Shown here one piece after another: positions 8,370 to 46,321 of a DNA stretch of 64,000 nucleotides. The stretch is from an uncultured Myxococcales bacterium. Its GTDB lineage: Bacteria; Myxococcota_A; Polyangia; JAAYKL01. Made by a program: the position numbers and the translations under genes. The stretch spans positions 15,526 through 79,525 of the forward strand of contig CAYWLQ010000004.1 in NCBI GenBank assembly GCA_964458775.1. The letters run 5' to 3'. Position 1 is the stretch's first letter, and every line of letters starts with the position of its first letter. Under the pieces are notes generated by a model. The model did no database searches. It saw nothing but the letters and a program-made list of their open reading frames with translations, and was not told where the DNA came from.

Positions 8370-8725
8370 ATGACAACTCCGTTGTATTAATTGTACAAAC
8401 CAAAACAATCCTTCCTATCAATTAACCAGAAACAGCATAATTATTCCTGTTGCAATATGCTGTAAAAATGCATATTTCCAACCTATTAAAGAATTTGCAT
8501 TTGATAAATGTTACCAAAACCCCATGTCAACAAGGTTGACAAACCTAATTTTACCTGAATATTTTTGAACAAGTGTTGTATGTAAGAAAAATACTACACA
8601 AAAGAAGAGTTCTAAACACATGTCTATTCAACAAAGAAAAATTTTCTATCCTTAATACGCGCACCATGTGCTAAGGTCACGAAGGATATATTTTTTAATT
8701 AATACAATCGGTCATGGGAGTTGCT

Positions 8726-10708
8726 ATGGCTAGAGCCTCTTCAAACATTATACTTATTAGTACTTCAGAGGATACCAAAAGCTTCTTCTCATTTTTGTTT
8801 CGTCAACATTTCAAGAAGCACAATCTTATTATTGTTTCTTCACATAGAGATATTGTTACAGAAAAAGAAAAACTTCAGCTCGATGCAATAATTATTGATG
8901 AACCTGCATCTGAACTTGAAACAACCGCAAAAGAACTTTCAGATATGTTTTCTAATCTTTCGTTATCCTGCAAGGTCCCATTAATGGCTTTAATAGAGAG
9001 CGACGAAGTTTTAAACAAAGCAGACAGGCTACAGTCATTTGGCATTGATGATGTAGTTTTTCGACCCATCGATGATAGAGAACTTTTAGTTCGAATAAGA
9101 ATGATGCTGAGAATAAAAGCTGCTGAAGAAGAAAATAGAATCGCTCGACTTCGTATATTAGAAATGGAATCAGCACATCAATCTGAGTTGGTGGCAAAGG
9201 AAAAGCGTTATCAACGTTTGGTTGAAATATCACCTGATGCCATTTTGATTTGTAACGAAGGAAAAATTACTTTCATAAACAATTCTGGAAAGATGCTTCT
9301 TAGACTTAGCAATCCGGAAACCCTTATCGGGCGTCCTTTGATCGACATTATCCATCCGGAATCTATTTTCGCCATAAGAAGAATCTTACAAGATTCAGAA
9401 TCTGCAAAAACCCAAACACCGTTTTCTCTAATTAAGCTCAGGGCCGAAAACGGGTCAGTTGCAAATGCAGAAGCGGTTGCAGTACCCTTTGATGACAACG
9501 ACAACAAAAGTGTTATGTTGGTGTTTCGCGACATAGCAGGAAGACCGGCTATGACTGAAAGATTTCAACAATCACAAAGAATGGAAGCTGTCGGTCAACT
9601 TGCCGGCGGTGTTGCTCACGATTTTAATAATATTCTCACCACGATTAGAGGGTACTCCGATTTGCTGTTGGACACTCTTAAGAAAGAAGACCCGCTTGTC
9701 GAAGATGTTAAGGAAATTAAAAATGCAACTGAACGAGCCGCTTCTCTAACCAGACAATTATTGGCCTTCAGTAGAAGACAACAGATGGCACCGGCTCCTC
9801 TTGATATAAACAGAGTGGTGTCAGACATTCAAAGAATGTTAAAGCGAATGATAGGTGACCATATAGAACTGATTACTGACTTGGAGCCGGATTTGGGAAT
9901 CGTAAAGGCCGACAGAAGTCAAATTGAACAGGTAATAATGAATCTATGTGTCAACGCCAGAGATGCCATGCTTAATGGAGGCACAATAACAATTAGAACC
10001 TCCAATATCGAGATAAAAAATGAGAGACCGGAATCGGCTCCCGATATCAGTCCCGGAACCTATGCTTTGTTAGAAGTAAAGGATACCGGTGTTGGAATCA
10101 GTCAGGATATTATTTTTCATATTTTTGAGCCTTTCTTTACAACCAAACCCAAGGACATGGGAACCGGCTTGGGATTGTCAACAGTATACGGAATCGTAAA
10201 ACAAAGCGGAGGTGATATTTCTGTACAGAGCACTCCCAATAAAGGAACTGTCTTTAGGATTTATTTACCCATAGTGTCAGACTATGCTTCAGAAAATTTT
10301 ATAAAATTTGATCGAGGTCCTGCCGGCGGTTCCGAAACTATTTTATTAGTGGAAGACGATAAAACGGTAAGATATTTGGCTAAACGTCTTTTGGAAAGAG
10401 CCGGTTACAAAGTAATACCAACAGCCAACGGAGCCGAAGCCCTTTTTCTTGCTGAGCAACACAAAGGAGATATTCATTTAATACTTACAGATGTGGTAAT
10501 GCCGGAAATGGGCGGAACAGCGTTGGTAGAGAAACTGGCTAAGAAGCATCGTAATTTAAAAGCCATCTTGATGTCAGGATATTCTGACAAAGATGTTATT
10601 AAATTTGCTGAGCGGCACTCCGGTGTGGTTTTTCTCCCCAAACCGTTTAGTTATGAAGAGTTGACCCAAAAAGTACGATCTGTATTGGATTGTGAAGATA
10701 ATACTTAA
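8726..10708 (+). CDS. Hybrid sensor histidine kinase (degenerate N-terminal REC-like domain, PAS, HisKA, HATPase_c, C-terminal REC)
   Basis: PAS region 'ISPDAILICNEGKITFINN'. H-box 'VGQLAGGVAHDFNNILT'. ATPase motifs 'NLCVNARDA', 'DTGVGIS', 'GTGLGLS'. C-terminal receiver 'ILLVEDD...LILTDVVMPEMGG...LMSGY'. The ATG at 8726 has a GGGAG RBS. The alternative start is 8714. Confidence 0.8.
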   Translation: MARASSNIILISTSEDTKSFFSFLFRQHFKKHNLIIVSSHRDIVTEKEKLQLDAIIIDEPASELETTAKELSDMFSNLSLSCKVPLMALIESDEVLNKADRLQSFGIDDVVFRPIDDRELLVRIRMMLRIKAAEEENRIARLRILEMESAHQSELVAKEKRYQRLVEISPDAILICNEGKITFINNSGKMLLRLSNPETLIGRPLIDIIHPESIFAIRRILQDSESAKTQTPFSLIKLRAENGSVANAEAVAVPFDDNDNKSVMLVFRDIAGRPAMTERFQQSQRMEAVGQLAGGVAHDFNNILTTIRGYSDLLLDTLKKEDPLVEDVKEIKNATERAASLTRQLLAFSRRQQMAPAPLDINRVVSDIQRMLKRMIGDHIELITDLEPDLGIVKADRSQIEQVIMNLCVNARDAMLNGGTITIRTSNIEIKNERPESAPDISPGTYALLEVKDTGVGISQDIIFHIFEPFFTTKPKDMGTGLGLSTVYGIVKQSGGDISVQSTPNKGTVFRIYLPIVSDYASENFIKFDRGPAGGSETILLVEDDKTVRYLAKRLLERAGYKVIPTANGAEALFLAEQHKGDIHLILTDVVMPEMGGTALVEKLAKKHRNLKAILMSGYSDKDVIKFAERHSGVVFLPKPFSYEELTQKVRSVLDCEDNT

Positions 10709-11908: not shown

Positions 11909-12105
11909 AATTTTGTTCTAAAAATACGCATAACATACCAAATAAGAAGTTTGCAACACGTATATTCAACATGCCTTCTTAGCTGTAACTGTGATATTTT
12001 GTCTAAAAAAGATGTGTTTAAGCCGACAAACAAAAATATTGTCGTATATACTAGTTAAACAATTGTCCCTTTTTATCGAAAGCACCTCTATAGATGGAGA
12101 TAAAA

Positions 12106-13881
12106 ATGACTGGAAACCGCTTTTATGTAAATGAAGAGAGTCCCTGGCTAAAACCCGAATCAGGATGGCCGGACGAAGTTCCTCATCAATTTCAAACAGA
12201 TGAACGCTCTCTTTATGAAGTATTGTCTGATTCTTGCAAAGATTATGCTGACAGAAGAGTTATCTGGTTTGAACCTCTCAATACGGAAATAACTTATAGA
12301 GAACTAAAGTTAGCTGTAGATCGCTTTGCTTCAGGACTGTATCAACATAATATTAGAAAAGGTGATACGGTGGCACTTATGCTTCCCAATAGTCCGCAGT
12401 ATATTACTGCCTATTATGCATGTCATTGCATCGGCGCAGCGGTAACCGGTATTAATCCTCTCTATAAACCACAGGAGGTACTTCATCAACTGAAGACTAC
12501 AAAGGCCAAGGCTCTTATTGTTCTGGATATGCTTTATGAATCTCAGGTCTCGTCCATATGGGATAAATCAGGAGTCGAGTTATTGGTTACCACTAATATT
12601 GTAGATATGATTAAGGGGAATCATCTCAAAAAACTATTGGGAAAGCTTTTGGGAAAGATTCCGCAAGGCAGCGTACCCGCTTCTTCTCGTTATTTTAACA
12701 GTCTGCTTTCAACAAAAGAAAGCCTTCCCAAAATATCAATAGACTGCCATGAGCCGGCTGTCTATTTGATGACCGGAGGCACTACAGGTGTTCCCAAAGC
12801 AGCGGTTCTAACTCACTTTAATTGTGTTAACAATGCCAAGCAATGCACACATTGGATATACAACATCAAACCGGGGACGGCTTATATTGGGATTCTTCCT
12901 TTGTTTCACGCTTTTGCGATGACCACTTTCATGAACACTATGTTGCGTTCCGGAGGGTTTGCAATGCTGTTTCCCAAACCCCCTCCGACAGATGTTCTTG
13001 TTGAGAAAATCATTCAATTCGGACCTCCAGAGGGAACAATCTATTGCGGTGCAGAAGTATTGTTTAAGCGTATGGCTGATTTTTTGGAAGATGAAACCAA
13101 TAAAGCAAAATACAAAGATGCACTCCAGGGAAAACTGACCTTGTGCATTTCAGGAGCAAGTCCTCTTCATCGTCCCGTTCAGGAAGCCTTTGAGAAGAAT
13201 ACCGGTGCAAAACTCTCAGAGGGTTACGGTCTGACAGAGTCTTCACCGGTAGTCAGTTGTGCTCCGTTTTGGGGTAAAAGAAGTGTAGGAACAATCGGTC
13301 TACCCTTTCCTGGAACAGATTGGCGGATTGTGGATAAGATGGACTACAATAAAAAGATGGAGCAAGGAAGAGAAAATGTAGGAGAACTGGCAGTTGCCGG
13401 TCCGGGGGTAATGAAGGAATATTTAAATCGTTCTGAGGAAACGGCAGAAACACTAGTGGAAATAGACGGAAAGAAGTGGCTTCTTACCGGAGACATCGGA
13501 TACATGGATGAATTAGGTCGAGTGGTAATTCTTGATCGAAAAAAACAGCTGATAAAATTTAAGGGCATGTCAGTCTTTCCCAAAGAGGTTGAAGAGCTTA
13601 TCGCCGGACACGAAGCCGTTAATGAGGCAGCCGTAGCCGGTCTTCCTGACAGCACTTATGGAGAGATAATTAAAGCATGGATTGTTCTTAAGGAAGACAA
13701 GAAAAACAATATTACCGAAGATGAGATGAAGAATTGGTGCGAAGAAAACATGGCACATTACAAGGTGCCCAAACTGATTGAATTTAGAGATGAAATACCC
13801 AAAAACATTATCGGCAAAGTACTGAGAAGAGAACTGCAAGAAAAAGATCCCATATGGCTTAAGGCCCATCTTGAACCTTAA
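12106..13881 (+). CDS. Long-chain fatty-acid-CoA ligase (AMP-dependent synthetase/ligase, FadD-like)
   Basis: AMP-binding motif 'YLMTGGTTGVPKAAVLTH'. Also 'GYGLTE' and 'ITEDEMKNWCEENMAHYKVPKLIEF'. The ATG at 12106 follows a GGAG. The track start is 12094. Confidence 0.8.
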   Translation: MTGNRFYVNEESPWLKPESGWPDEVPHQFQTDERSLYEVLSDSCKDYADRRVIWFEPLNTEITYRELKLAVDRFASGLYQHNIRKGDTVALMLPNSPQYITAYYACHCIGAAVTGINPLYKPQEVLHQLKTTKAKALIVLDMLYESQVSSIWDKSGVELLVTTNIVDMIKGNHLKKLLGKLLGKIPQGSVPASSRYFNSLLSTKESLPKISIDCHEPAVYLMTGGTTGVPKAAVLTHFNCVNNAKQCTHWIYNIKPGTAYIGILPLFHAFAMTTFMNTMLRSGGFAMLFPKPPPTDVLVEKIIQFGPPEGTIYCGAEVLFKRMADFLEDETNKAKYKDALQGKLTLCISGASPLHRPVQEAFEKNTGAKLSEGYGLTESSPVVSCAPFWGKRSVGTIGLPFPGTDWRIVDKMDYNKKMEQGRENVGELAVAGPGVMKEYLNRSEETAETLVEIDGKKWLLTGDIGYMDELGRVVILDRKKQLIKFKGMSVFPKEVEELIAGHEAVNEAAVAGLPDSTYGEIIKAWIVLKEDKKNNITEDEMKNWCEENMAHYKVPKLIEFRDEIPKNIIGKVLRRELQEKDPIWLKAHLEP

Positions 13882-13921
13882 CTTTTCGTCGGAAATAGAC
13901 TCTGAGAGTCGTTCTAACCTT

Positions 13922-14662
13922 TTATTTATTTGTTAATATGTCTGAGTTTAGAGCTTCGTACATAATCTGTCTGGTTTCTTCCATCAAAGCAGTATCTGAC
14001 TTATTTGCAGAGACAATGGGAGAATGAATGACTAATTTTGCTTTACCGGGAAAAAGCATAAGGCTCTTTGTTTGAACAATTTCACGAGTACCGTGAATTG
14101 TTACCGGAAGTACAGGCAATCCAAGATCACAGGCCATTTTGAAAGCACCTTTTTTAAACTTTCCCAACTCTCCTGTTTTGCTGCGAGTGCCTTCAGGAAA
14201 TAGTATTACGGAGGTTCCGTTTACGATGATTTTTTGAGCAGACTCCAGTGATTCCAACGCCTTTTTTGTATTTGATCGGTCAATAAAAATATGTCCCAAA
14301 GCTTCGCAGGCAAACCCCAAAAAAGGGACTTTGCGCAGCTCTTTTTTCATTACCCACCTAAAATCAACACCCAACCATCCATAAAGAGCAACGATATCGT
14401 AGACGCTCTGGTGATTGGCAACAATAATATATGATTGATTTCTATCTATATTCTCCTTTCCTTGAGTCGTAACAAAAACGGGGGTCATATAACATATTAG
14501 TCGAGACCAAAGTCCTCCGCAGTATTTTCCCGCAACTCTCGGACCTGCCATCGGAGCAATAACAAGAGATAAGATTGCAAAAAACAGTGTAGATAATCCC
14601 AAATAAGGTGCAAACACCAACCATGCCCAAAGTTGATATGGGTATATTAATATTCTCTTCAT
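13922..14662 (-). CDS. 1-acyl-sn-glycerol-3-phosphate acyltransferase (PlsC/LPLAT family)
   Basis: HX4D motif 'ANHQSVYDIVAL' and 'FPEGTRS'. The N-terminus is hydrophobic. Confidence 0.75.
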   Translation of the reverse strand: MKRILIYPYQLWAWLVFAPYLGLSTLFFAILSLVIAPMAGPRVAGKYCGGLWSRLICYMTPVFVTTQGKENIDRNQSYIIVANHQSVYDIVALYGWLGVDFRWVMKKELRKVPFLGFACEALGHIFIDRSNTKKALESLESAQKIIVNGTSVILFPEGTRSKTGELGKFKKGAFKMACDLGLPVLPVTIHGTREIVQTKSLMLFPGKAKLVIHSPIVSANKSDTALMEETRQIMYEALNSDILTNK

Positions 14663-14853
14663 AAATCATCCAATCGCAAAACCTGAAATTTTATGTCAGT
14701 CATCAAAACGACGCAGGCGGGAGCCTACATTTATTTCAACGTCCAATCAACACCATCGACAATTCGTACTTGTTAAAGGCAATAGTTTTTTCCAGTTGAA
14801 TTATAGTTAAATATTTTATAGGTTTTCACACCTTGATAAGGGGGTTTTCCAAA

Positions 14854-15606
14854 ATGGGTAAACGAATTACATTAAGTGCACATCCCGCCGATGAACGTAT
14901 CGGAATGCTGTCAATGCATGATGAAGAATCTAAGAATACCTTTACAGATTCTTTTGTTGACGATTTTATGGAAATATTAAATCAACTTCAAAAAAACAAG
15001 ACCTATCGGGTAATAATATTATCCGGTCTTAAGGATGTATTTTGTGCAGGCGCCGCTAAAGAAGCCTTAATGTCTATTTTTGAAGGAGAATTGGAAGTAA
15101 AAGACTTGGCACTTTCTGAGCTTCTCCTCAATATCCCAATACCTGTGATCGCAGCCATGGAGGGCGCAGCTTTAGGCGGCGGTTTTGTAGTTGCCCTTTG
15201 TTGTGATATTGTTCTCATGAACGAAAAGAAAATGTACGGAACTAATTTTACTAACATGGGTTTTACACCCGGCATGGGAGCAACTAGGTTACTGCAAGGT
15301 TTAGTAGGCGATTTTGTTGCTAACGAAATGATGTTTCGCGGTAGATTGATGAAGGGACGAGAATATAAAGGAAGAAGCTTAATTAACTACATACTTCCCG
15401 GAGAAGAAATTCTGTCAAAAGCATTGGATATTGCTCTTGATATTGTTGACAAACCCATAAAGACTCTTCAAATCCTGAAGTACTCAGTTTCCTTGAATAA
15501 ACGTAAGCTTCTTCTTGATGCCAGGGTTCATGAAGATTTCATGCATAAGATCTCCTTCGGCAGTCCCGAAACACGGCAAATAATTGAACGTATGTACAAC
15601 GGTTGA
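14854..15606 (+). CDS. Enoyl-CoA hydratase/isomerase (crotonase) family, PksH/PksI (ECH)-like
   Basis: Crotonase oxyanion-hole segments 'VFCAGAAKEAL' and 'AAMEGAALGGGFVVALCCDIV'. The ATG at 14854 follows an 'AAGGGGG' RBS. The track start at 14833 is a TTG. Confidence 0.7.
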   Translation: MGKRITLSAHPADERIGMLSMHDEESKNTFTDSFVDDFMEILNQLQKNKTYRVIILSGLKDVFCAGAAKEALMSIFEGELEVKDLALSELLLNIPIPVIAAMEGAALGGGFVVALCCDIVLMNEKKMYGTNFTNMGFTPGMGATRLLQGLVGDFVANEMMFRGRLMKGREYKGRSLINYILPGEEILSKALDIALDIVDKPIKTLQILKYSVSLNKRKLLLDARVHEDFMHKISFGSPETRQIIERMYNG

Positions 15607-15837
15607 ATTTTAGAGCATACTGCGATATGGGCAAAGCAGTTGTTTAACCTTTGTATTGTCCGAATGAGGATTTTTCATCCGGATTGACAACGGCGGACAA
15701 AAATATTATAAGGCGCCTGTTTTTTTGAAATATGGAATTTAGGTTGTATAAACATATCGAAATAATTAAGGATTAATAACAATCAAACATCGGCTGTTAT
15801 AGCTGAAAACAAAATTACATCTGGAGGCAACAAGAAA

Positions 15838-16092
15838 ATGACCCACGACGAAGTATTTGCAATATTAAAGAAGCACATTATGGAACAGCTTGAAGATGAG
15901 GTAGAAGAAGATCAAATCGACATTGAGAAATCTATGGTCGACTTGGGTGCCAACAGCCTCGATATCGTTGAAATCGTAACCAACACAATGCGTGAGCTAA
16001 AAATAAAAATCCCAAGGGATGAACTTGCAGCAATTAATACTATGAAGGGCTTGGTCGCAGCGATGACTGAGTTCAAGAATAAAAGCAACTAA
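15838..16092 (+). CDS. Acyl carrier protein
   Basis: 84 aa with 'DLGANSLDIVEIV' (DSL phosphopantetheine-attachment motif). There is a GGAGG RBS. Confidence 0.8.
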   Translation: MTHDEVFAILKKHIMEQLEDEVEEDQIDIEKSMVDLGANSLDIVEIVTNTMRELKIKIPRDELAAINTMKGLVAAMTEFKNKSN

Positions 16093-16293
16093 TTAAAAGA
16101 TGCTTTGAGTACGCTTTTCACAGTACTGTGAACGGATCATGTTTCGGGCACGGGCATGTGTAGATTTTGAAATTTGTAATATAAGCTTGACTTGTATTTG
16201 TTTTCATTTTTACCAACACTGTTTATTTGCGTGCTGAGAGCATAACCGGCGGATTCAATATAGAATCTTCTGAGATAGATGTTTTTGTAAAAA

Positions 16294-16503
16294 ATGTTCG
16301 CGTGTGAGAAGCGAGTAAAAACCCCTATGTTGTTTTCAAAGGAAGTCTTGTTGTTCCTTCAAGAAATGGTCGGAGAGAAGAAGTGCATCTATAAGGTTGG
16401 TATTGAATATCTTGATGGACAACGTACTTCCATGTTAATTGACCATCACAAAGTGAACGATCTTTTTAAAGGGTTCACTTTTCAGGGCATTGGCAATCGG
16501 TGA
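16294..16503 (+). CDS. Small hypothetical ORF inside the cassette (possibly non-coding)
   Basis: 69-aa ORF ending 12 nt before the FabZ-like gene. No motif is recognisable. Confidence 0.15.
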   Translation: MFACEKRVKTPMLFSKEVLLFLQEMVGEKKCIYKVGIEYLDGQRTSMLIDHHKVNDLFKGFTFQGIGNR

Positions 16504-16515
16504 GGAATAAACATT

Positions 16516-17043
16516 TTGGATTACGAACAACTGGCAAAACAATACAGAAAAAAAGCAATTTTGGACGTAGATTCAGCTACATTATCCAAGGTTAATTACA
16601 GACGTTCTGATATTGAGAAATTGTTGCCCCATCGTCATCCATTTTTGTTGGTTGACGGGATAACGGGAATAGATCTTCAACAGCAAGGAATAGTGGGTTT
16701 TAGGAAAATTGATCCGCAAGATCCAATTTTTAAAGGCCATTTCCCAAACTATCCAATTCTGCCCGGGGTTTTGCAAATTGAGATGATAGGACAGCTTGCC
16801 ATTTGTTTTTATGATTTTCACAAGCGACAATGTGTCGACATGCCTGATGATACAGTAACATTGGGTGTAAGAGCGCTTAAAATCTATCATACATTGTTTC
16901 AACACGAAGTGCTTCCGAACGATGAAGTAACAATTTTAGCTAAGCTACTCGAAAAGGACGATTATACTTTTCGAGGTATCGGACAAATTCTAAACGGAAA
17001 CAAGGTTTGTACGATTGCTATTGCCGAGTTTTATATAGTATAG
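16516..17043 (+). CDS. 3-hydroxyacyl-ACP dehydratase (FabZ/FabA hot-dog fold)
   Basis: 'LLPHRHPFLLVDGI' and 'GHFPNYPILPGVLQIEMIGQLA' are FabZ signature segments. The start is a TTG at 16516 after a GGTGAGGA RBS. Confidence 0.7.
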   Translation: MDYEQLAKQYRKKAILDVDSATLSKVNYRRSDIEKLLPHRHPFLLVDGITGIDLQQQGIVGFRKIDPQDPIFKGHFPNYPILPGVLQIEMIGQLAICFYDFHKRQCVDMPDDTVTLGVRALKIYHTLFQHEVLPNDEVTILAKLLEKDDYTFRGIGQILNGNKVCTIAIAEFYIV

Positions 17044-17079
17044 AGCAAACCGGTCTTTTTAGAAGAAGAGGATCATACT

Positions 17080-18372
17080 ATGAGCGAAAAGAGAAGAGTT
17101 GTTGTTACAGGAATGGGAATCCTAACGCCGATTGGCGACAATTTGGATGATTACTATAAAAATCTAATTGCAGGTAAATCCGCAATTACCAACTGGCGCT
17201 ATCTTGATACTTCAAAAATTCGCTGTAAGGTTGGCGGAGATCTTGGAGACTATGATTACAAAAAGTATATGAACGAGTATCTTGCGCCAAGAATGCCCGC
17301 AGATGCATTTAAGCGAATGAAAAAGATTCTCAAAACTGCTCCTTTAGCTACCCGACTTACTGTGATTACGGTAGTTCAGGCATATATAGATGCAGGGCTT
17401 TTTGATGTTAAAGACCTAGATCCCACAAGAGTAAACGCTGTGCTGGGAGGTCATAATTTTAATAGCAATTACATCTACGAAAATTTCAAACAATTTCAGG
17501 ATGAGCCCGAATATATAAACGGAATGATGGGAATTTGTGTATATGACACAGATCTCATCGCCAGCGCAGCAGAAGTCTGTCAGATACTGGGAAGAGTTTA
17601 CAGTATCGGCGGTACTTGTACCAGTTCTACCGTAGCAATGATGCACGGCTTAAGAGAGATCCGTTCTGGAGATAATGACATTTCTGTAGTTACAGGCGGT
17701 GTTTTGGACTATTCGCCGCTTGATCTGCAAGCTCTTATTCTAGTTAGTGCGATTAGTTATAAAAGCTTTAACGATGCTCCGTCTAAATCTTCAAGACCCT
17801 ATGATATTGCAAGAGAGGGCTTTGTTCCGTCTCACGGCGGCGGAGTTCTTATTTTCGAGGAATTGGAGCATGCGAAAAAACGCAATGCTAAGATTTATGC
17901 CGAAGTACTTGAAGTCGATTGTAATTCGGACGGAAATCACCTGTCAAATCCATCAACAGACGGACAATCTCGCTTAATGAACGGTGTGCTGAAAAAGGCA
18001 GGGGTGAGACCCGAGCAAATTGATTATGTAAACGCTCATGCAACCTCTACACCTCTTGGAGATCGTGTAGAGATAGCAAGTATTAAAAGAGTATTCGGTG
18101 ACCATGTTAAAAAGCTAAAGGTCAACGCATCAAAATCAATGCTAGGGCATGCGGGTTGGTCGGCCGGCGCGGTGGAATCCATCGGCGCTATTTTGCAAAT
18201 GAATCATAACAGACTTCACCCCTCGATAAATATTGATAATATTGACCCTGAGATTGACATTGATGTCTGTGCAAATAAAGCTCAGGATTGGGAAATCAAT
18301 TATCTTATGAAGAACTCCTTCGGCTTCGGCGGTCTCAACGCCTGTGCAGTTTTTAAGAAGTTCAAAGAATAA
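17080..18372 (+). CDS. Beta-ketoacyl-ACP synthase (KAS I/II-like, Cys-His-His retained)
   Basis: Active-site Cys in 'GGTCTSSTVAMMHG'. His motifs 'VNAHATSTPLGD' and 'GHAGWSAGAVE'. It is 430 aa. Confidence 0.8.
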   Translation: MSEKRRVVVTGMGILTPIGDNLDDYYKNLIAGKSAITNWRYLDTSKIRCKVGGDLGDYDYKKYMNEYLAPRMPADAFKRMKKILKTAPLATRLTVITVVQAYIDAGLFDVKDLDPTRVNAVLGGHNFNSNYIYENFKQFQDEPEYINGMMGICVYDTDLIASAAEVCQILGRVYSIGGTCTSSTVAMMHGLREIRSGDNDISVVTGGVLDYSPLDLQALILVSAISYKSFNDAPSKSSRPYDIAREGFVPSHGGGVLIFEELEHAKKRNAKIYAEVLEVDCNSDGNHLSNPSTDGQSRLMNGVLKKAGVRPEQIDYVNAHATSTPLGDRVEIASIKRVFGDHVKKLKVNASKSMLGHAGWSAGAVESIGAILQMNHNRLHPSINIDNIDPEIDIDVCANKAQDWEINYLMKNSFGFGGLNACAVFKKFKE

Positions 18373-18376
18373 AGGA

Positions 18377-19513
18377 ATGCTCATGTCCAGCTCATTAGAT
18401 GCAGGACTGCTTGGTCGTTTGGTCGAAGACGCCGAAGCAGTGTGGCCGGATAATTTTGAAGATATTGAGACAATGTTTAACCGTTGTTGTTTTGCCATTT
18501 CATGGGATGCGGTAAAAAAACTCGGCCTATTCTCGCAAAAAGGCGATGTTGAAACATTGTCTTCGATCAGAGAAAAGATAGCTCTTTTTAAAGATGCGGA
18601 ATATGTCCTAAAACACGTTTTACGTATTTTATGTGATGAGCAGGTTTTGGCCGAAAAAGATGACGGCTATATTTGTATTGACAATGAACCCTATATCGAA
18701 ACTCCGGCTGAGTCTCTAGTTGCAGCTACCAGAGCTTTTCCCGAAGAAGGTGCTCCATTTCAATGGTTAGCCAGATCCGGTGACGGTCTTGTTCCTTTTA
18801 TTCAAGGAAAATTATTTGCCGAAGAAGTAATGTTTCCCGGCGGAAGTTTTAAATTGGTGGAAGAAGTATACAATACTTCCAATGTCTATAGTTTTTATTC
18901 AAAATTGGCCGGTAGAGCTGTAAAGCGTTTTGTGGAAGAGCACTTTTCAAAGCCTATTACTATGTTTGAAATTGGGGCGGGAACCGGAAACGGAACTGCC
19001 AATGTTTTAACTCAAACAAGTGATAAATTCGAAAAATATATTTTTACAGATGTAGGTAAAGCACTTGTTCAAATGGGGCAAAGGCGGTTTAAGAAGTCAG
19101 GATATGACTTTTTAGAGTACCGCACGTTTGATGCCTGTAAAAGCCTTGCTGAGCAGGATTTTTCTGAATCCTCAGTTGACCTAGCCTTAGCGGTTAACGT
19201 TATGCATGCGACCGACGATATTCTTGTCGGTCTTGAGAATACCAAAAAGCTTCTGAAAAACAACGGTGTGTTAATTCTATCTGAGATAGCCCCTCCCCAA
19301 GGAGGCATTTATCGGTATATGGAGTTAACTTTCGGTCTGCTTCCCAGCTACGGAGTTTACACGGATAGAATACTTCGTCCTACAGCTCCAATTATAAGAC
19401 CGGCAGAATGGGTAAGCGCTTTTAAGAAGGTCGGTTTTAGAGAAGTCGAAATTGTTCCGGGTGATCGCTCTTCGTCAATGGATAGGGGCGGAATCGTTAT
19501 CGGAATAAAATAG
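18377..19513 (+). CDS. SAM-dependent methyltransferase (class I; PKS-type MT-like) with N-terminal extra domain
   Basis: Motif I 'FEIGAGTGNGT'. The ATG at 18377 lies just after the KAS stop with an AAGGAA RBS. The track ORF start at 18344 overlaps the KAS gene. Confidence 0.6.
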   Translation: MLMSSSLDAGLLGRLVEDAEAVWPDNFEDIETMFNRCCFAISWDAVKKLGLFSQKGDVETLSSIREKIALFKDAEYVLKHVLRILCDEQVLAEKDDGYICIDNEPYIETPAESLVAATRAFPEEGAPFQWLARSGDGLVPFIQGKLFAEEVMFPGGSFKLVEEVYNTSNVYSFYSKLAGRAVKRFVEEHFSKPITMFEIGAGTGNGTANVLTQTSDKFEKYIFTDVGKALVQMGQRRFKKSGYDFLEYRTFDACKSLAEQDFSESSVDLALAVNVMHATDDILVGLENTKKLLKNNGVLILSEIAPPQGGIYRYMELTFGLLPSYGVYTDRILRPTAPIIRPAEWVSAFKKVGFREVEIVPGDRSSSMDRGGIVIGIK

Positions 19514-19530
19514 AAGTGAGGTTGATTGAT

Positions 19531-20292
19531 ATGCTGCTCGAAGGAAAAAATGTCTTTTTCACTGGCGGTTCAAGAGGTATCGGACATGATGCGGTTCTAG
19601 AGCTTGCCAAACACGGTGCCAATATTGCTTTTACCTATGTAAATAATGAAGCTTCTGCTGCTAAAACAGCCGAAGAGATAAAGGCAATAAATCCTAATGC
19701 AAAGGTTATGTTTTATCAGTTAAACGTGAAAGACTCTAAGCAAGTTGAGAAAGTTGCAGACAAAGCAATAGAGGACATGGGGTCTATTAATGTGGTTGTT
19801 AACAACGCAGGAAATCTTAACGATAATCTGGTTGTAAACATGTCTGATGAGCAGTGGTTTGATGTCATCAATACTCATCTGTCAGGAACTTTTTTTGTTT
19901 GCCGTTCATTCATAAATGAATTCTTATATAATAAGGGCGGTAAATTTATTAACACTTCTTCTATTACATATACAGGTTCAGCCGGACAGGCAAACTACTC
20001 TGCTGCCAAAGCAGGTATTATCGGTTTTTCTCGCGCTTTGGCTAAAGAGTGGGGCAAGAAAAACATTTATACAAATATAATAGTGCCGGGCTACTACGAC
20101 ACCGAACTGACCCGCGCCAATGCCACAGAGATAGTTGTGGACAATTTTGTTCGTATGTCATCTCTTAAACGTGCAGGTCAGGGATATGAGTACGGTCGCG
20201 CTATTGTGTTCTTCGCCTCAGATCTCTCCTCTTTTGTTAACGGTCATGTTCTTGAGGTGACAGGCGGTCTCGAAACCATTCCGCCCATCTGA
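19531..20292 (+). CDS. Short-chain dehydrogenase, 3-oxoacyl-ACP reductase (FabG-like)
   Basis: 'VFFTGGSRGIG', 'NNAG', 'YSAAKAG' (YxxxK). The ATG at 19531 follows an AGTGAGG RBS. Confidence 0.7.
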   Translation: MLLEGKNVFFTGGSRGIGHDAVLELAKHGANIAFTYVNNEASAAKTAEEIKAINPNAKVMFYQLNVKDSKQVEKVADKAIEDMGSINVVVNNAGNLNDNLVVNMSDEQWFDVINTHLSGTFFVCRSFINEFLYNKGGKFINTSSITYTGSAGQANYSAAKAGIIGFSRALAKEWGKKNIYTNIIVPGYYDTELTRANATEIVVDNFVRMSSLKRAGQGYEYGRAIVFFASDLSSFVNGHVLEVTGGLETIPPI

Positions 20293-20329
20293 TAATGACA
20301 AATTAGACCGTATAAGGAGAAAACAGCAA

Positions 20330-21559
20330 ATGGGAATCGGAATCGAAAAGATTAATGTCTATGCAGGTAGTTTGGTGTTGGATATTGAAAAACTGGCTAT
20401 AGCCAGAAACCGGGATGTAGAATACTTTAAAAATGAGCTTCTAATCGATAAAAAGTCTCAGCTAGTTGACTATGAAGATGTCATTACCATGGCGGTTAAC
20501 GCAGCCAAGCCGATTATTTCAGAGCAAGATAAAGAAGACATCGAACTTTGTATTTTTGCAACTGAGTCAGGTTTGGATTTTTGCAAAACCAACTCCAGCT
20601 ATGTGTGTCATTATTTGGGACTAAAAAACCAGGTTAGAAATTTTGAAATTAAAAATGCCTGCTATGCAGCAACCTGCGCTATACAGATGGCTGTTAGTTG
20701 GGTGGCATCGGGAGTAGCTCCAGGCAAAAAAGCGTTGATTGTTTCAAGCGATATTAACTACGACCACGAAGGAAGATCCGGTGAGGAAGTTCCTGCTGTA
20801 GGTGCTGTAGCTATGATTATTAGTGCGACACCCAAAGTTATTGAATACGAATTGGGAAAAACCGGTTACTTTACCTTTGAATGTACAGACTATGCACGTC
20901 CGACATCAACGTGGGATATTATAAATCCCCAAGAATCATTGTATGCATATCTCGATTGTTTTGAAGGTGCCTGGGCTCATTATAAGACAAAATTTGAAAA
21001 AGATTTTGATCTTAACGAACACTTCAAAAGAATTATTTACCACACGCCTTTCGGCGGTTTGGTAAAGATGGCTCATACTCGTATGTTGAAAGATATGTAT
21101 GAGGGTATCAAGAAAAAGGAAATAGCCGCTCACTTTGAAGAAAAAGTTGGAAAATCACTAAAAATACCAAGAGCTGTCGGTAACACATACTCCAGCACTG
21201 TTTATACCTGTCTTATGGGTCTTTTATTAGAAGATGATCAAGTCAATCCAGGTGATCGGATAGGAATATACTCATACGGCTCCGGTTCTTGTGCTGAGTT
21301 TTACAGCGCAATAGTTCTTCCTGGAGCTAGAGAATATATTAAATCTCTTGGAATAGATGAGCATTTAAACGCACGTTATGAACTCTCCATAGAAGAGTTT
21401 GATTCGCTGTGCAGAATGCGCTCTTCCCACGCAGAAAAACCGACCTTTGATACTAACTTGGAATACCCAAAGGGATGGTATGATAAATACTATAAAGGAA
21501 AAGGCTTCCTTACTCTTAAAGGTGTAAAAGACTGGATCCGTAAGTACGAATGGAGTTAA
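20330..21559 (+). CDS. HMG-CoA synthase family protein (PksG/HCS-like, ACP-dependent)
   Basis: N-terminal 'MGIGIEKINVYAGSLVLDIEKLAIARNRD'. Catalytic Cys in 'NACYAATCAIQMA'. There is a GGAGAA RBS. It sits with the ACP, KAS and ECH genes as an HMGS cassette. Confidence 0.8.
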   Translation: MGIGIEKINVYAGSLVLDIEKLAIARNRDVEYFKNELLIDKKSQLVDYEDVITMAVNAAKPIISEQDKEDIELCIFATESGLDFCKTNSSYVCHYLGLKNQVRNFEIKNACYAATCAIQMAVSWVASGVAPGKKALIVSSDINYDHEGRSGEEVPAVGAVAMIISATPKVIEYELGKTGYFTFECTDYARPTSTWDIINPQESLYAYLDCFEGAWAHYKTKFEKDFDLNEHFKRIIYHTPFGGLVKMAHTRMLKDMYEGIKKKEIAAHFEEKVGKSLKIPRAVGNTYSSTVYTCLMGLLLEDDQVNPGDRIGIYSYGSGSCAEFYSAIVLPGAREYIKSLGIDEHLNARYELSIEEFDSLCRMRSSHAEKPTFDTNLEYPKGWYDKYYKGKGFLTLKGVKDWIRKYEWS

Positions 21560-21569
21560 TCCCTCCTAT

Positions 21570-22049
21570 TCAATAGGGAGTTTTTCCTTCCATCTTATTC
21601 CAAAGCAACAAAGGCTTTTCCCCTTCTTCACTTTTAATATAAATCATAGGAATTTTACGTAGAGCAATATCTACGGAAACTTCTTTGTATAGGTCTGCAT
21701 CATCGAATCCTACAGCGGCAGCTTCGAATCTTGTAGACGCAAAATAAATCTTTTCAATTCGCGCCCAGTAGATTGCAGCCAAGCACATAGGACAAGGTTC
21801 GCATGTTGTATAGATTTCACAATTGCTAAGTCGAAAATCTCCCAGGTTTTGACATGCCTGTCTGATAGCGCATATTTCTGCATGAGCGGTAGGGTCATTA
21901 TCTCTCACAACTCTATTAGAGCCGACTCCGATAACTTTTCCATCTTTTACTACTACAGCCCCAAAAGGTCCTCCCTTACCGTCAGCCATGTTTTTGATAG
22001 CTTCTTCTGCAGCCAATTTCATCATTTCTTGTATAAAGAGTGATGTCAT
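21570..22049 (-). CDS. Nucleoside/nucleotide deaminase (CMP/dCMP-type zinc deaminase; TadA/guanine deaminase-like)
   Basis: Zinc motifs 'HAEICAI' and 'CEPCPMC'. The ATG at 22049 forms an ATGA overlap with the stop of the upstream lipoprotein gene. The track start at 22067 is a TTG. Confidence 0.7.
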   Translation of the reverse strand: MTSLFIQEMMKLAAEEAIKNMADGKGGPFGAVVVKDGKVIGVGSNRVVRDNDPTAHAEICAIRQACQNLGDFRLSNCEIYTTCEPCPMCLAAIYWARIEKIYFASTRFEAAAVGFDDADLYKEVSVDIALRKIPMIYIKSEEGEKPLLLWNKMEGKTPY

Positions 22050-23095
22050 ATTCCGATACCTATCCAAGTAAACCGCGGAATAGGCGGTGTTACTATTTTC
22101 CGGTTTTTAACTAAAGCCTGTCCGCAAGAATGCATAATTCCGTCCTCAACCATTTGTAACTCGCCGGCACCGCTATCATTCACGCAATCACCGAGTTCAT
22201 CCACATATATAAAACTTGGTTGGTCTAACAAATTCTCATCTCCCCAATAAGAGTCATAACCGCCCAATAAATAAATCGTTGCTGTGGTATTGTCCTCAAA
22301 GTCTTCCGGCGCATCTATTGTCAAAGAGACTCCCCCTCCTTTTAGTCGAGCCCATCTAGGGCTAATAAAATACAAAGCACTAAGCTTTTTGTCTACAAAC
22401 GGCGGTGTCCATATTTCCAAAGGAGCCTTGAATACACGAATTTCTTGTTCATGTTCAGGTGCAACCTCGCTACTTCCGTCAAATTTTACCAACACTCCCG
22501 GCTCTAATACTGTAGTTAAGCCCAGAGTTGAGATAACAGCGCCCTCAGACGGTTGATAAACAGTTGAATCAGATGGAAGCGCAAACAAAAAAAGCTCTCC
22601 AATATCCAAATCAAAATCGCTCTCGCCCTTGTCGCTGATAGTTTCTTTGGATGGAACACTGACAAAAGCATATTCAGCAAAAGCATTTGTATCGCTTAAA
22701 ACACGAAGGTCAATATGCAACGGCTTCTTGTTAAAATCATAGGGGACACAATCTATATCTTCGTCCATCGGATGATTCCAAACAAAGGTTCCGTCAAGAG
22801 AGGAGAAAACAGGGGCAAAACAACTTCCAATACAAACTATGACAGCAGCAGAGGTTGGTTCTGCATCCATAATTCTAATTTGTCCTGAAATAGAGGCAAG
22901 ACACGCCCCTCTATCCATATCAGAAGAACTAGATGTGTCGGAATCGTACATAACACTTACAGAATCGCTGTTGTCGTCAACAGGCGGCTTGTTGCAAAAC
23001 CCCGACAAAAGGCAAAGAATAACTATAACAATTGGAAGTTTTATAAACCTATAGCAGAGAATGGACAGAGTGGACATAGTAGACATAATGGACAT
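22046..23095 (-). CDS. Hypothetical secreted protein or lipoprotein
   Basis: Signal-like 'MSTLSILCYRFIKLPIVIVILCLLSGFC'. Candidate ATGs at 23095, 23086 and 23077 lie inside a palindromic repeat. The rest has no recognisable domain. Confidence 0.4.
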   Translation of the reverse strand: MSIMSTMSTLSILCYRFIKLPIVIVILCLLSGFCNKPPVDDNSDSVSVMYDSDTSSSSDMDRGACLASISGQIRIMDAEPTSAAVIVCIGSCFAPVFSSLDGTFVWNHPMDEDIDCVPYDFNKKPLHIDLRVLSDTNAFAEYAFVSVPSKETISDKGESDFDLDIGELFLFALPSDSTVYQPSEGAVISTLGLTTVLEPGVLVKFDGSSEVAPEHEQEIRVFKAPLEIWTPPFVDKKLSALYFISPRWARLKGGGVSLTIDAPEDFEDNTTATIYLLGGYDSYWGDENLLDQPSFIYVDELGDCVNDSGAGELQMVEDGIMHSCGQALVKNRKIVTPPIPRFTWIGIGI

Positions 23096-23170
23096 AGTGG
23101 ACTCCCGGAAGCGGATTAAGCAAGAGCGGTCCACAATGTCTACTCTGTCTACTGTGTCCACTGTGTCCAT
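23061..23170. repeat. Imperfect 42-bp inverted repeat (arms 23061-23102 and 23129-23170, 26-bp spacer) built from helically phased RTGGACA / TGTCCAY hexamers
   Basis: The left arm is atggacagagtggacatagtagacataatggacatagtggac. The right arm is gtccacaatgtctactctgtctactgtgtccactgtgtccat (about 35/42 complementary). Each arm has about 5 hexamer copies at 9-11 bp spacing. Confidence 0.7.
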
Positions 23171-23202
23171 TAAAACAGCGCTTTCTCTCCTTCTCCCGTC
23201 CA

Positions 23203-25617
23203 TCAATGCCTCACTCCCCTGGGCTCCCATTGCAAACCCGCAGCATAGCCGATTGAAAAGCCGTATTGATAGTCTGAAGAATTGCTTTGATAGACTATAA
23301 GTGGATCTATCATCTCTTTGTTTAAAGCATAGGTTGTAATAGCAATGTTCATAGTCGGACCGCAATAAAAAGAGAGTTGTTCTATTATTCGAATTCCCAA
23401 AACAGGTCTAAGTTTTAGTATGTAGCCTGTTGACTCAGAATCCCAATTATAATTTTGGAAAATTCGATTTGCAGTTAAATCCAGTTCTACCCATAAACGA
23501 GTAAAATTAATATGACCTCCAAGACCGCCTATGAGTGAATAGCGATCAAGCTCTCCAAAACCATGATATCCCGCACCTAATATACCGAACAAATATGGAC
23601 CGCCTATTTTCAAACCCGCATTTATTAACGAGGTATCGCTTGACCAAACAGTGGGAGCCAAAATTCCGTTGCCGGCATAGTTGATAAGACCAACCGCAGC
23701 ACCGTCCAGTCTTTTTGATGCTATATTTATAAGTCCTATCTGGGCCCCTTTTACTTCTTTGGCATAATTAATAAGTCCTATCTGAGTGCCGTTTATATGT
23801 TCTTTAACAATATTTACCACTGATGACATTTGAAGGCCGTTTAACGACCATGCATAGTTTGATACAAAAGACCCTTGATATCCATTGGAAATGTCTCCAG
23901 CACTAATATTGATAACTCCCGAACCCTGAAAACCGGCCATAGAGCTCTTATTGAAATTGAAAACAAAAGCCCCTTGAAAACCATAAGAACGTGCACCGTT
24001 TATATTACCGACTCCGGCAGCCTGAAAACCGCCTGCAGAAGCCTTATTCATATTGACGAAACCGGCCAGCTCAGCTCCGAGAAAGGGCCCCATTACGATA
24101 TTTGAACCGCCGGCCAAAGATACCCCCTTAAATGCTCCTCCTGAATAATTGCCAAAGCCGGCATATTTAAATCCCGTGCTTTCTTTTAGTATAAAATTTG
24201 CAAAACCTGCAAATTGTGCGCCCCTAAGGTTTTCCAGTGCAACATTCACTCCAAATGAAGCCTGCAGACCCCACACATTAAATCTTCTTATATTACCGAC
24301 AAGTCCGGCTTCTACACCGAAAAGTTCATGGCCGTATCCTATTATATTTAAGGATAGATTATTCATTTCTTTTTCTCGACGGCCGAAATTAAAAGGAATA
24401 TTTACCCCGGGAACCAATCCTAGTCGAAAGGCTGTATTTTTTTCACCGTTATACCATACCAATGGTCTTTCTTGAGATTTTTCAGAAGCTTTTCCAGCGG
24501 CAGGCAAAGTAAAATTATCAATTGGAGATGTTCCTCTCAAAATTGTATTCTCTGCTGACATACGCTTAAGCTCAGATCTAGTTACAATAGTGGTCCTACC
24601 CTTGTTCAGAGATACAGTTCCTTTGAGAGGAGCCTTACCCATGTCCATACTTATCTCGTACACACCAGGGTCCAGTCCTAAACTTATAGGACTGCCGCCA
24701 GGAGTATTGATTTCTGCAGTGAGTTGTCCTTTACGGTTTCTTATAAATACTCGACCTTCGATATCATCTCCAATTACCAACATGGCAGACGTGCCTCGAA
24801 GATCCGTGAGCACAAGATCTCCTGATCCTTTTAGACTAAAGTCATATCCCGCATGCTGCGGTCCTGCCTGGGTTAATTCTGTTCGAGCTAATGTTTCCGC
24901 GAAAGCATATTGATAAGCCTCATTTAGGGTTACCTTATTGTCTCGATTATGATCAGCAGCACCGCGCAGACCTGATACCAGATAATAGGTAAAAAAAGAT
25001 GCTGCAATCCGATCTGATTCTTGAGCAGCCTCGTTCTCTGAAGCAGATGTTAGGTAAGCATACCCCTCAACATCTACTGAGGTATCTAATAAGAAAGGAG
25101 TACGCTTGGTTCCGCCTTTGTTGCGAACAAGCGCACCTGATGAACAAGAATCTAGGATGGCAATTCGAACATCTGCCGGAAGACTTGATAGAGCATTTCT
25201 TATTTCTCGATAAGTTATAAGATCACCGCCAAGCATTAGACCATATTCATCAGAGTGACCCGAATAATAGAATACCAATTCCACACGCGTTGAAGCGACT
25301 TTTTTTTCTCGCTCTAAAAAAGCGCGCATTCTAGAAAGCCCTGCTTCAAATTCGAATCTGTCAGGCTCTAGAAGTATTACCATATCGGCTAATTGAACTC
25401 CTCCCAACTGCGTAAGCACTCCTGCCACCGATTTGGCATCCGAATGTGCAAATTTAAGAACGGTACGGTTGGGACCTCCGTCATTGGAGCCTGCAACAAA
25501 AGCAAATCGTTTTATTACTTCACGCGATTCAGAAGCATACAAGCCTACCGACAGAAAACAGACCGCCAAAAAAACTATTAATGATAGTCTTGTATTAAAA
25601 AGACATTTGTTTTTCAT
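23203..25617 (-). CDS. Secreted caspase-like peptidase (C14 family His-Cys dyad) with about 20-aa Gly/Asn-rich repeat region and C-terminal beta-rich domain
   Basis: Signal peptide 'MKNKCLFNTRLSLIVFLAVCFLSVGLYA'. C14 motifs 'LVFYYSGHSDEYG' (His) and 'RIAILDSCSSGALV' (Cys). Mid-protein degenerate repeats such as 'GAQIGLINIASKRLDGAAVGLINYAGNG'. Confidence 0.7.
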   Translation of the reverse strand: MKNKCLFNTRLSLIVFLAVCFLSVGLYASESREVIKRFAFVAGSNDGGPNRTVLKFAHSDAKSVAGVLTQLGGVQLADMVILLEPDRFEFEAGLSRMRAFLEREKKVASTRVELVFYYSGHSDEYGLMLGGDLITYREIRNALSSLPADVRIAILDSCSSGALVRNKGGTKRTPFLLDTSVDVEGYAYLTSASENEAAQESDRIAASFFTYYLVSGLRGAADHNRDNKVTLNEAYQYAFAETLARTELTQAGPQHAGYDFSLKGSGDLVLTDLRGTSAMLVIGDDIEGRVFIRNRKGQLTAEINTPGGSPISLGLDPGVYEISMDMGKAPLKGTVSLNKGRTTIVTRSELKRMSAENTILRGTSPIDNFTLPAAGKASEKSQERPLVWYNGEKNTAFRLGLVPGVNIPFNFGRREKEMNNLSLNIIGYGHELFGVEAGLVGNIRRFNVWGLQASFGVNVALENLRGAQFAGFANFILKESTGFKYAGFGNYSGGAFKGVSLAGGSNIVMGPFLGAELAGFVNMNKASAGGFQAAGVGNINGARSYGFQGAFVFNFNKSSMAGFQGSGVINISAGDISNGYQGSFVSNYAWSLNGLQMSSVVNIVKEHINGTQIGLINYAKEVKGAQIGLINIASKRLDGAAVGLINYAGNGILAPTVWSSDTSLINAGLKIGGPYLFGILGAGYHGFGELDRYSLIGGLGGHINFTRLWVELDLTANRIFQNYNWDSESTGYILKLRPVLGIRIIEQLSFYCGPTMNIAITTYALNKEMIDPLIVYQSNSSDYQYGFSIGYAAGLQWEPRGVRH

Positions 25618-25618
25618 G

Positions 25619-46184: not shown

Positions 46185-46321
46185 CATCGACTTGATCCTG
46201 TTTTTAGTTTAATTGAAATATTCTATTTCATTTGAGAGGCTTCCTAATCTCTGCTACCTTTTATTAATAGAGGACTTTTTGTTTAGAATTAACTTGTTTA
46301 TTAGAATGAAGGATTGAAATC

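Follow-up and report, generated by a model that had tools for sequence, protein, structure and literature searches.

A PKS-independent, dissociated beta-branching gene cluster with a probable lipid destination in an uncultured Myxococcales bacterium

The chemistry of 3-hydroxy-3-methylglutaryl (HMG) synthase (HMGS or HCS) cassettes that introduce beta-branches into polyketides, e.g. AcpK/PksF/G/H/I of bacillaene and CurB-F of curacin, has been summarized elsewhere (PMC11522927). In a 64-kb stretch of DNA from an uncultured Myxococcales bacterium (64,000 nucleotides of contig CAYWLQ010000004.1, hereafter termed the window), we analyzed a gene cluster that resembles such a cassette and lies beside a gene for a PlsC-family acyltransferase. 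The cluster shares with the bacillaene and curacin cassettes an HMGS of the PksG/CurD type with its Glu-Cys-His triad, an enoyl-CoA hydratase homolog (ECH) of the PksI/CurF type, termed ECH2, and a small discrete acyl carrier protein (ACP); in relatives of the window cluster, an ECH1 gene directly follows that of HMGS. Unlike these cassettes, the window cluster has a ketosynthase (KS) with a Cys-His-His triad and no non-condensing KS (KS0), carries its own ketoreductase (KR), dehydratase (DH), and C-methyltransferase (C-MT), and is devoid of ECH1; moreover, the window encodes no modular polyketide synthase (PKS), the cluster is associated with a lipid acyltransferase, and its HMGS belongs to a separate clade. 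Compared with the canonical cassette, the cluster is therefore a member by its HMGS and ECH2 but not by KS0, ECH1, or a PKS to serve within the window. We are confident that the locus represents a PKS-independent, dissociated beta-branching system; that it forms an autonomous "type II" system, the ACP of which would carry a growing methyl-branched acyl chain destined for a membrane lipid, is a more evenly balanced proposition.

The closest functional analog, found in the same phylum, is the alternative isovaleryl-CoA (AIB) pathway of Myxococcus xanthus, the enzymes of which are MvaS, LiuC, AibA/B, and AibC. The AIB pathway is CoA-based and employs an MvaS-type synthase and a glutaconate-CoA-transferase-like decarboxylase, whereas the window system is ACP-based, has a PKS-type HMGS and ECH2, and contains an additional C-methyltransferase. 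In M. xanthus, HMG-synthase chemistry followed by dehydration and decarboxylation provides a methyl-branched C5 unit made from acetate for iso-fatty acids (PMC5389471). Another partial parallel comes from type II fatty acid synthase (FAS) clusters of anammox bacteria, in which AmxMT1, a CurJ-like C-MT that stands alone and bears a His-Glu dyad, was proposed to alpha-methylate short beta-ketoacyl-ACPs on the way to branched lipids (PMC9821293). Both the anammox clusters and ours place a free-standing C-MT among FASII-type genes, but no HMGS or ECH cassette has been described in the former. The third-best PDB match of the window C-MT is 7dmb, which is probably AmxMT1.

The initial annotation of this DNA considered a lipid-modifying HMGS cassette to be an undescribed pathway, and our literature search indeed found no published account of PKS-less HMGS clusters; a 2026 paper on HCS mining did not bear on them. 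The nearest precedent comes from Actinobacteria, in the form of orphan type II PKS clusters that contain an HCS (bioRxiv 10.1101/509463, Tables S173-S179). These also combine an HMGS homolog with discrete KS and ACP and no modular PKS; in contrast to the window cluster, however, they have KS/CLF pairs, LnmK/L/M-type AT/DC donors, and two ECHs, and they possess no C-MT, FabZ, or PlsC.

Gene content and enzyme types

The genes are positioned according to the window (Table 1), three starts having been adjusted to public gene calls with exactly identical proteins. The nine genes reported by the initial annotation were all found intact, in the order and orientation claimed. For comparison, we gathered about 75 related loci (designated by L and a number) by genome, metagenome, and contig look-ups and grouped them by blast-based synteny; the metagenome scan contributed one new informative context.

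The absence of a megasynthase, first stated for 10 kb on either side, extends to the entire window: no PKS or non-ribosomal peptide synthetase is encoded in the 64 kb, and the largest open reading frames (ORFs) specify a kinase/sigma-54 regulator of 1702 aa along with two proteins composed of DUF4215 repeats. The description of the locus as having no PKS is nevertheless only partly apt, in that it holds for modular PKSs while the cluster itself is a dissociated PKS-like module (KS, PKS-type C-MT, KR, DH, and ACP). The set of separate elongation proteins expected of a type II FAS or dissociated PKS (condensing KS, KR, DH, and ACP) is complete; malonyl-CoA:ACP transacylase and enoyl reductase, which a full type II FAS would include, are both missing from the window cluster.

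The HMGS was originally proposed to be of the PksG type, and its PDB matches agree, with 288 bits for CurD and 256 bits for PksG compared with 176 bits for MvaS. Its residues E79, C111, H238, S318, and G319 are invariant across the clade and correspond to the Glu-Cys-His triad and the Ser/Gly oxyanion hole of VirC (PMC11522927). If the protein were instead MvaS, the HMG-CoA synthase of the mevalonate pathway to isoprenoids, one would expect its HMG_CoA_synt Pfam domains and the fact that the MvaS-type model TIGR01835 heads the list of its NCBIfam matches. The TIGR01835 score of 267.7 nonetheless remains under the cut-off of 360.35, the CurD and PksG scores lie far above that of MvaS, the gene is embedded among those for ACP, KS, and ECH2, and neither an HMG-CoA reductase nor a mevalonate kinase gene was found within the window. 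The mevalonate identity is effectively refuted by the cut-off and the PDB scores, and the enzyme is assigned to the polyketide HMG-ACP synthases (PksG/CurD type).

The KS was said to retain its catalytic Cys, and an alignment to Escherichia coli FabF (6okg) confirms an intact Cys-His-His triad (siggtCtss, naHatstp, and ksmlgHag). Its best NCBIfam scores, 339 bits for PRK07103 (PksF-like) and 330 bits for fabF, are both under the cut-off. Each of the 112 KSs encoded in PKS-less loci keeps the catalytic Cys, and 111 show the complete triad, the last being cut by a contig end before the second His, so that neither the window KS nor any of these 112 is a KS0; the lone Cys-to-Ser variant resides in a PKS-linked locus. 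On this alignment, the KS is classified as a condensing enzyme rather than a KS0. The ACP, for its part, has the Ser required for function (DLGANSLD); its best NCBIfam match, PRK07117 (52.7 bits), is under the cut-off, and, as regards a dedicated donor (AcpK/CurB type) or an acceptor subtype, CurB scores no better against it than do the ACPs of FAS systems.

The label of class I methyltransferase given earlier is correct with respect to the core fold but too generic, since the protein is homologous to CurJ-type C-MTs over both the N-terminal lid and the class I core. In phmmer searches of the PDB, it matches the CurJ C-MT (1e-31, residues 91-373) and DisA (7e-26), then AprA MT2, PsoF, LovB, and the PksCT CMeT. 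Its NVMHAT and LILSE segments align with NVLHAT and LVLYE of CurJ, including the His-Glu dyad. According to an exhaustive search of 1.8 billion representatives, its relatives are domains inside synthases of 2,000-7,700 aa, with the exception of a small family of proteins of about 375 aa. From these matches, the protein is identified as a free-standing PKS-type C-MT; a BioC-like O-methyltransferase identity, suggested by a weak match to TIGR02072, was dropped on the basis of the PDB matches and the PKS-embedded relatives.

FabG scores 224.8 bits with TIGR01830, under the cut-off, and displays the TGGSRGIG and YSAAK motifs; its gene adjoins that of HMGS in every class of the family. A FabG-HMGS pair also occurs alone in several Spirochaetota metagenome-assembled genomes (MAGs; L013, L014, L015, L102, L103, and L111), with an HMGS 74-78% identical to that of the window and no further cluster gene within 10 kb.

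Only one ECH is present, as noted at the outset, and it can now be typed. It exceeds the cut-off of NCBIfam PRK07110 (271.8 versus 215), its best PDB matches are PksI (136 bits) and the ECH2 of CurF (128 bits) with ordinary crotonases at 90 bits or less, and the His of its FMHKI motif aligns with that of PksI MMHEK (mutated in 4q1j) and that of CurF IHQV. L003 encodes two ECHs, the second of which shares 53% identity with the window protein and the first 28%. These features assign the single ECH to the ECH2 decarboxylase type. An ECH1 homolog is found nowhere in the window: the HMGS gene extends to 21559, and the end of a convergent deaminase gene lies at 21570, a junction that is identical in two independent assemblies. 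By comparison, ECH1 is encoded directly 3' of HMGS in L090 (HMGS 89% identical), L006, L087, L089, and L088, and we conclude that it was lost or relocated in the window.

The initial annotation suggested that FabZ may replace ECH1. As a general rule, this does not stand, because ECH1-bearing relatives (L090, L087, and L089) also have FabZ; a substitution confined to the window stays speculative. Since an intact ECH2 is retained without ECH1 both in the window and in the MAG containing L007 and L091, some other dehydratase would have to supply its substrate, with FabZ as the obvious candidate and an unlinked crotonase as the alternative. The window FabZ scores 78-83 bits with the NCBIfam models, under the cut-off, its best PDB matches are FabZ proteins, and it contains the motif GHFPNYPILPGVLQIEMIGQ, with the His and the Glu placed as is usual in FabZ, where these residues are catalytic.

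Table 1 Features of the beta-branching locus and its immediate neighbors (window positions).
Feature	Position	Strand	Basis or remark
FadD-like acyl-CoA ligase	12094-13881	+	PF00501 and PF13193; convergent with PlsC
PlsC-family lysophospholipid acyltransferase	13922-14662	-	PF01553, TIGR00530; divergent from the cluster
Promoter-like motif TTGAATTA...TTTTATAGG	14796-14822	+	Within the 191-bp PlsC/ECH2 intergenic region
ECH, ECH2 (decarboxylase) type	14854-15606	+	PRK07110; start moved from 14833 per public gene call
Discrete ACP	15838-16092	+	PF00550; Ser in GANSLD
Alpha/beta-hydrolase relic, C-terminal ~61 codons	16315-16503	+	tblastn; sits in the ACP-FabZ gap
FabZ-like 3-hydroxyacyl-ACP dehydratase	16516-17043	+	PF07977
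KS, KAS I/II type	17080-18372	+	Alignment to E. coli FabF
Free-standing PKS-type C-methyltransferase	18383-19513	+	PDB phmmer matches; start per public gene call
FabG-like 3-oxoacyl-ACP reductase (KR)	19531-20292	+	PF13561, PF00106, PF08659
HMGS, PksG/CurD type	20330-21559	+	PDB scores, HMG_CoA_synt Pfam domains

A family of HMGS clusters

The HMGS clade of the window is tight: about 62 clusters share at least 59% identity, after which the value falls to 47%. The core FabZ-KS-CMT-FabG-HMGS was found again in more than 15 independent contigs, an arrangement far beyond chance. The conservation of the neighborhood, which had been put forward as a check, thus extends to this core but not to FadD.

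The related loci fall into groups. The first, the window's own clade, has the core KS-CMT-FabG-HMGS, often with FabZ, ECH1, ECH2, and ACP. The fullest relative with the window layout, L087, reads ECH2-ACP-hydrolase-FabZ-KS-CMT-FabG-HMGS-ECH1-CrtI-like FAD oxidoreductase-phosphopantetheinyl transferase (PPTase). The second, termed class A, comprises about 55 loci from Spirochaetota, Aminicenantes, FCPU426, Firestonebacteria, Brevinematales, and one Alphaproteobacterium, arranged as FabD-KS-FabG-HMGS-ECH1-ECH2-FabL/FabI-like short-chain dehydrogenase/reductase (SDR)-ACP-alpha-oxoamine synthase (AOS)-FabZ. The third contains the classical PKS-linked cassettes of cyanobacteria and actinomycetes, with ORFs of several thousand residues. 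A FabD-like acyltransferase (AT) is encoded in L089, L096, and class A, and a FabL/FabI-like SDR in class A. In a midpoint-rooted neighbor-joining tree of HMGS, constructed with no bootstrap, the window clade, class A, and the PKS-linked proteins form separate groups.

Class A, for which we found no published account, has the appearance of a complete, dedicated beta-branching FAS that supplies the synthesis of an aminoketone or a sphingoid-like base. Its loci (among L019-L085, e.g. L020 4833-20210) often have an extra KS and a PPTase, and the AOS belongs to the BioF/Kbl/Spt family. A role in biotin or pimelate synthesis, considered for the BioF-like AOS of the relatives, was dropped in view of the removal of the carboxylate by ECH2 and of AOS scores under every equivalog cut-off.

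The surroundings of these loci bear on whether the cluster could be a classical beta-branching cassette serving, in trans, a modular (trans-AT) PKS elsewhere in the genome. Such a role would fit the PKS-type nature of HMGS, ECH2, ACP, and C-MT, and the absence of a PKS is established for the 64-kb window only; in addition, L089, with a window-type cluster in which the hydrolase is intact, encodes a type I PKS longer than 2795 aa (L089 17800-21227) 6.5 kb away on the opposite strand. However, L089 is the sole window-type locus seen with a PKS nearby. An ORF of synthase size (at least 1,400 aa) lies within 10 kb in 9 of the about 75 loci, 8 of which are cyanobacterial or actinobacterial and PKS-linked, leaving one such case outside the PKS-linked loci over several phyla. 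The cluster furthermore encodes a condensing KS, KR, DH, and ACP of its own, the KS0 that classical cassettes require is missing, and its HMGS clade stands apart from the PKS-linked HMGSs. We therefore judge service to a distant PKS to be very unlikely and favor a PKS-independent system.

Off-loading partners and the lipid link

The 423-bp gap between the ACP and FabZ genes (16093-16515) holds the remains of another gene. Residues 208-268 of the 268-aa alpha/beta hydrolase of L087 match this gap in a tblastn search (36% identity, E = 6e-5), and the DGYHASML motif of the intact hydrolases reads DGQRTSML in the window, with the His replaced (GYH to GQR). The relic is shared by L001, is interrupted by an in-frame stop in L090 and by a frameshift in L007, and the hydrolase is intact in L087, L089, L096, and L006. 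An acyltransferase at the cluster marks exactly the four genomes that carry the relic, namely PlsC for the window, L090, and L091 (from the MAG that also contains L007) and an LpxL-type enzyme for L001. Other members of the clade encode an AOS instead (L003, together with a thioesterase, and L004), and hydrolase, AOS, and PlsC/LpxL acyltransferase are never found two in one locus in the window's clade.

The window copy is thus a trimmed variant, with a hydrolase relic and without ECH1, CrtI-like oxidoreductase, or PPTase; no homolog of AOS, thioesterase, PPTase, or ECH1 occurs anywhere in the window. It could be suspected that it is a decaying remnant that makes no product any more, given the substituted His position of the relic, the absence of ECH1 at a junction confirmed in two assemblies, the missing FAD oxidoreductase and PPTase, and the stepwise reduction among the relatives, down to FabG-HMGS pairs. 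Yet none of the eight remaining genes is shortened and all retain their catalytic motifs, and L001, L090, and L007 share the trimmed layout with the window at 10-14% divergence of the HMGS protein, which argues for its maintenance. Compared with orthologs, every cluster gene shows a dN of 0.04-0.25 against saturated synonymous sites, a saturation that allows a qualitative reading of dN/dS only; this low dN against saturated synonymous change indicates long-term purifying selection. Decay is accordingly an unlikely explanation, and a functional, trimmed cluster is the reading that we retain.

The PlsC protein, the candidate off-loading enzyme, matches PF01553 (E = 3e-35) and TIGR00530 (128.9, over the 102.95 cut-off), with the HX4D motif (HQSVYD) at residue 84 and the EGTR motif (FPEGTR) at residue 157. 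Homologs 70-72% identical are encoded in L090 and L091, again divergently beside ECH2, and this divergent pair is kept in the three genomes despite differing outer flanks. In the MAG of L007 and L091, the PlsC-ECH2 pair stays together while the genes from ACP to HMGS are on another contig. In an alignment of the three PlsC/ECH2 intergenic regions, the blocks TTGA.T.A and TTCTATAG are conserved; the TTGAATTA...TTTTATAGG match, which may be a promoter-like motif, occurs once in the window, and a promoter scan showed no enrichment. As a separate observation, PlsC proteins of the window type have thousands of relatives, 55-60% identical ones occurring in Smithellaceae, Spirochaetota, Bacteroidia, and Myxococcota, and such conservation across phyla is unusually high for a PlsC.

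Overall, an acyltransferase of the PF01553 or LpxL type was found at the window, L090, L091, L001, L010, L012, and L088, and in the P0040 context. It is encoded on the same strand in L010, L012, L088, and the P0040 context, and upstream in the window, L090, and L001. No acyltransferase was found in the 67 loci L019-L085, which consist of class A, PKS-linked, and short or unclassified contigs. L001, the closest relative by HMGS (90%), has its LpxL-type lipid A acyltransferase 5' of ACP. At the position of ECH2 (both features noted for L001 4032-5617), it encodes a 249-aa protein with no Pfam match and with no similarity to the window, ECH2 included (tblastn, E <= 1e-3).

The lipid destination originally proposed for the acyl chain relied on both FadD and PlsC, and only the latter half gains support. 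No homolog of FadD adjoins any related cluster, and all top NCBIfam matches of the FadD-like protein are acyl-CoA ligases, at scores far under the cut-offs; the protein looks like a CoA ligase and not like an ACP-loading fatty acyl-AMP ligase. FadD was consequently rejected as a loading enzyme of the pathway, its association with the cluster not being conserved. The PlsC half, by contrast, is supported by comparative genomics, because the PlsC-ECH2 pair recurs, acyltransferases appear repeatedly at related clusters, and the loss of the hydrolase coincides with an adjacent acyltransferase, which suggests that the system is probably lipid-directed.

The same machinery could instead make a small released or tailored metabolite, e.g. 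a short methyl-branched unsaturated acid or a signal, the adjacency of PlsC being coincidental or inherited. Consistent with this alternative, L087, L089, and L096 end in genes typical of small-molecule clusters (alpha/beta hydrolase, CrtI-like FAD oxidoreductase, and PPTase), L003 ends in an AOS and a thioesterase, the cluster has neither an enoyl reductase nor a conserved enzyme for loading long chains, and window-type PlsC proteins have close homologs in unrelated contexts. On the other hand, with only a relic of the hydrolase in the window, L001, L090, and L007, hydrolytic release is unavailable from the cluster, it is in exactly those genomes that an acyltransferase adjoins it, and a second architecture has a PF01553 acyltransferase on the same strand. 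We regard the small metabolite as a somewhat unlikely product and prefer the lipid.

Several points weigh against a lipid-building autonomous system. PlsC is encoded on the opposite strand to the cluster and, because members of its very broad subfamily that are 55-60% identical occur in unrelated contexts and in other phyla, it may be a housekeeping gene whose proximity merely reflects descent. The correlation between hydrolase loss and acyltransferase comes from a small sample (4 genomes versus 4), and the relatives that bear a hydrolase look more like makers of a released small acid. The window cluster is without ECH1, a malonyl-loading acyl transferase, an enoyl reductase, and a PPTase, the relative L089 has its type I PKS nearby, and no member of the family has known chemistry.

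At the left end of the window, a truncated class V aminotransferase gene precedes co-oriented genes for an SDR, FolB, HPPK, and GTP cyclohydrolase I (pterin/folate; 1036-3253). The 1702-aa protein (3300-8408, minus strand) is a fusion of Ser/Thr kinase, AAA_16, TPR, GAF, sigma-54 activator, and HTH_8 domains, after which comes a hybrid histidine kinase (8714-10708). The region 22046-26922 (minus strand) encodes an 804-aa caspase-like protein (Peptidase_C14), two ORFs of 439 aa and 267 aa with no assigned function, as well as an ECF-type sigma factor (26422-26922). At 42984-49525, where the G+C content is raised (0.45-0.48 versus about 0.40), two proteins of about 1066 aa are encoded in tandem; both consist of DUF4215 Cys-rich repeats, and the second has a PA14 domain in addition. 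The nearest named relatives of the HtpG of the window are from Myxococcota and "Deltaproteobacteria" MAGs (54-60% identity), a bactofilin is also encoded, and the close relative with L007 and L091 is a MAG labelled "Polyangia"; together with the DUF4215 repeats and the kinase/sigma-54 fusion, these features point to a deep lineage that is uncultured and resembles Myxococcota. An Rfam scan of the window matched no RNA family, and the ECH2-ACP spacer folded as RNA is as stable as its shuffles (z = -0.02).

Proposed pathway and implications

The genes present, their intact catalytic motifs, family placement, and conserved synteny, and the absence of a PKS from the window are observations, on top of which we infer the order of the reactions, the donor of the acetyl unit, the length of the chain, the dehydrating activity, and the accepting lipid. 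Condensation of a primer and malonyl-ACP by the KS would yield a beta-ketoacyl-ACP. CurD, which matches the HMGS best among the PDB structures, has acetoacetyl-ACP as its substrate, so that an acetyl primer, leading to this very intermediate, is the most likely one. The C-MT could then methylate the alpha carbon of the beta-keto intermediate, the stage at which PKS C-MTs act (PMC9821293), and HMGS would add an acetate unit to the beta-carbonyl. The family has no KS0, the defining component of canonical cassettes, in which the active-site Cys is replaced and which makes acetyl-ACP from malonyl-ACP. Dehydration, the task of ECH1 in the relatives, would here fall to FabZ or an unlinked crotonase, and decarboxylation by ECH2 would produce the beta-methyl branch. 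FabG and FabZ would process further rounds of elongation, after which the finished acyl-ACP may be passed to the PlsC-family acyltransferase and onto a lysolipid, to end in a glycerolipid.

More tentatively, we envisage an ACP-dependent and PKS-independent route in which beta-branching by HMGS/ECH and C-methylation together yield multi-methyl-branched, isoprenoid-like chains from acetate, to be installed into membrane lipids by a dedicated PlsC or LpxL. This route would be one branch of a widespread superfamily; in Spirochaetota, Aminicenantes, and further uncultured phyla, the other branches would feed AOSs that give sphingoid-like bases or aminoketones.

In summary, the locus presents known chemistry in a new, autonomous context that is probably lipid-directed. 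Beta-branching by HMGS cassettes has so far been regarded as a tailoring device of modular PKSs, and the same chemistry would operate in many uncultured bacteria as an autonomous FAS-like system, coupled alternately to acyltransferases, hydrolases, or AOSs. If true, this would constitute a third route to methyl-branched lipid chains, besides branched-chain amino-acid primers and S-adenosylmethionine-dependent methylation, and would explain genes left unclassified by genome-mining tools. The family may thereby provide candidates, open to testing, for the origin of unusual branched lipids of anoxic sediments and spirochaetes, and parts useful for the engineering of branched fatty acids, namely a KS that would serve for priming as well as condensation, a C-MT that stands free, and an HMGS that would work without KS0.

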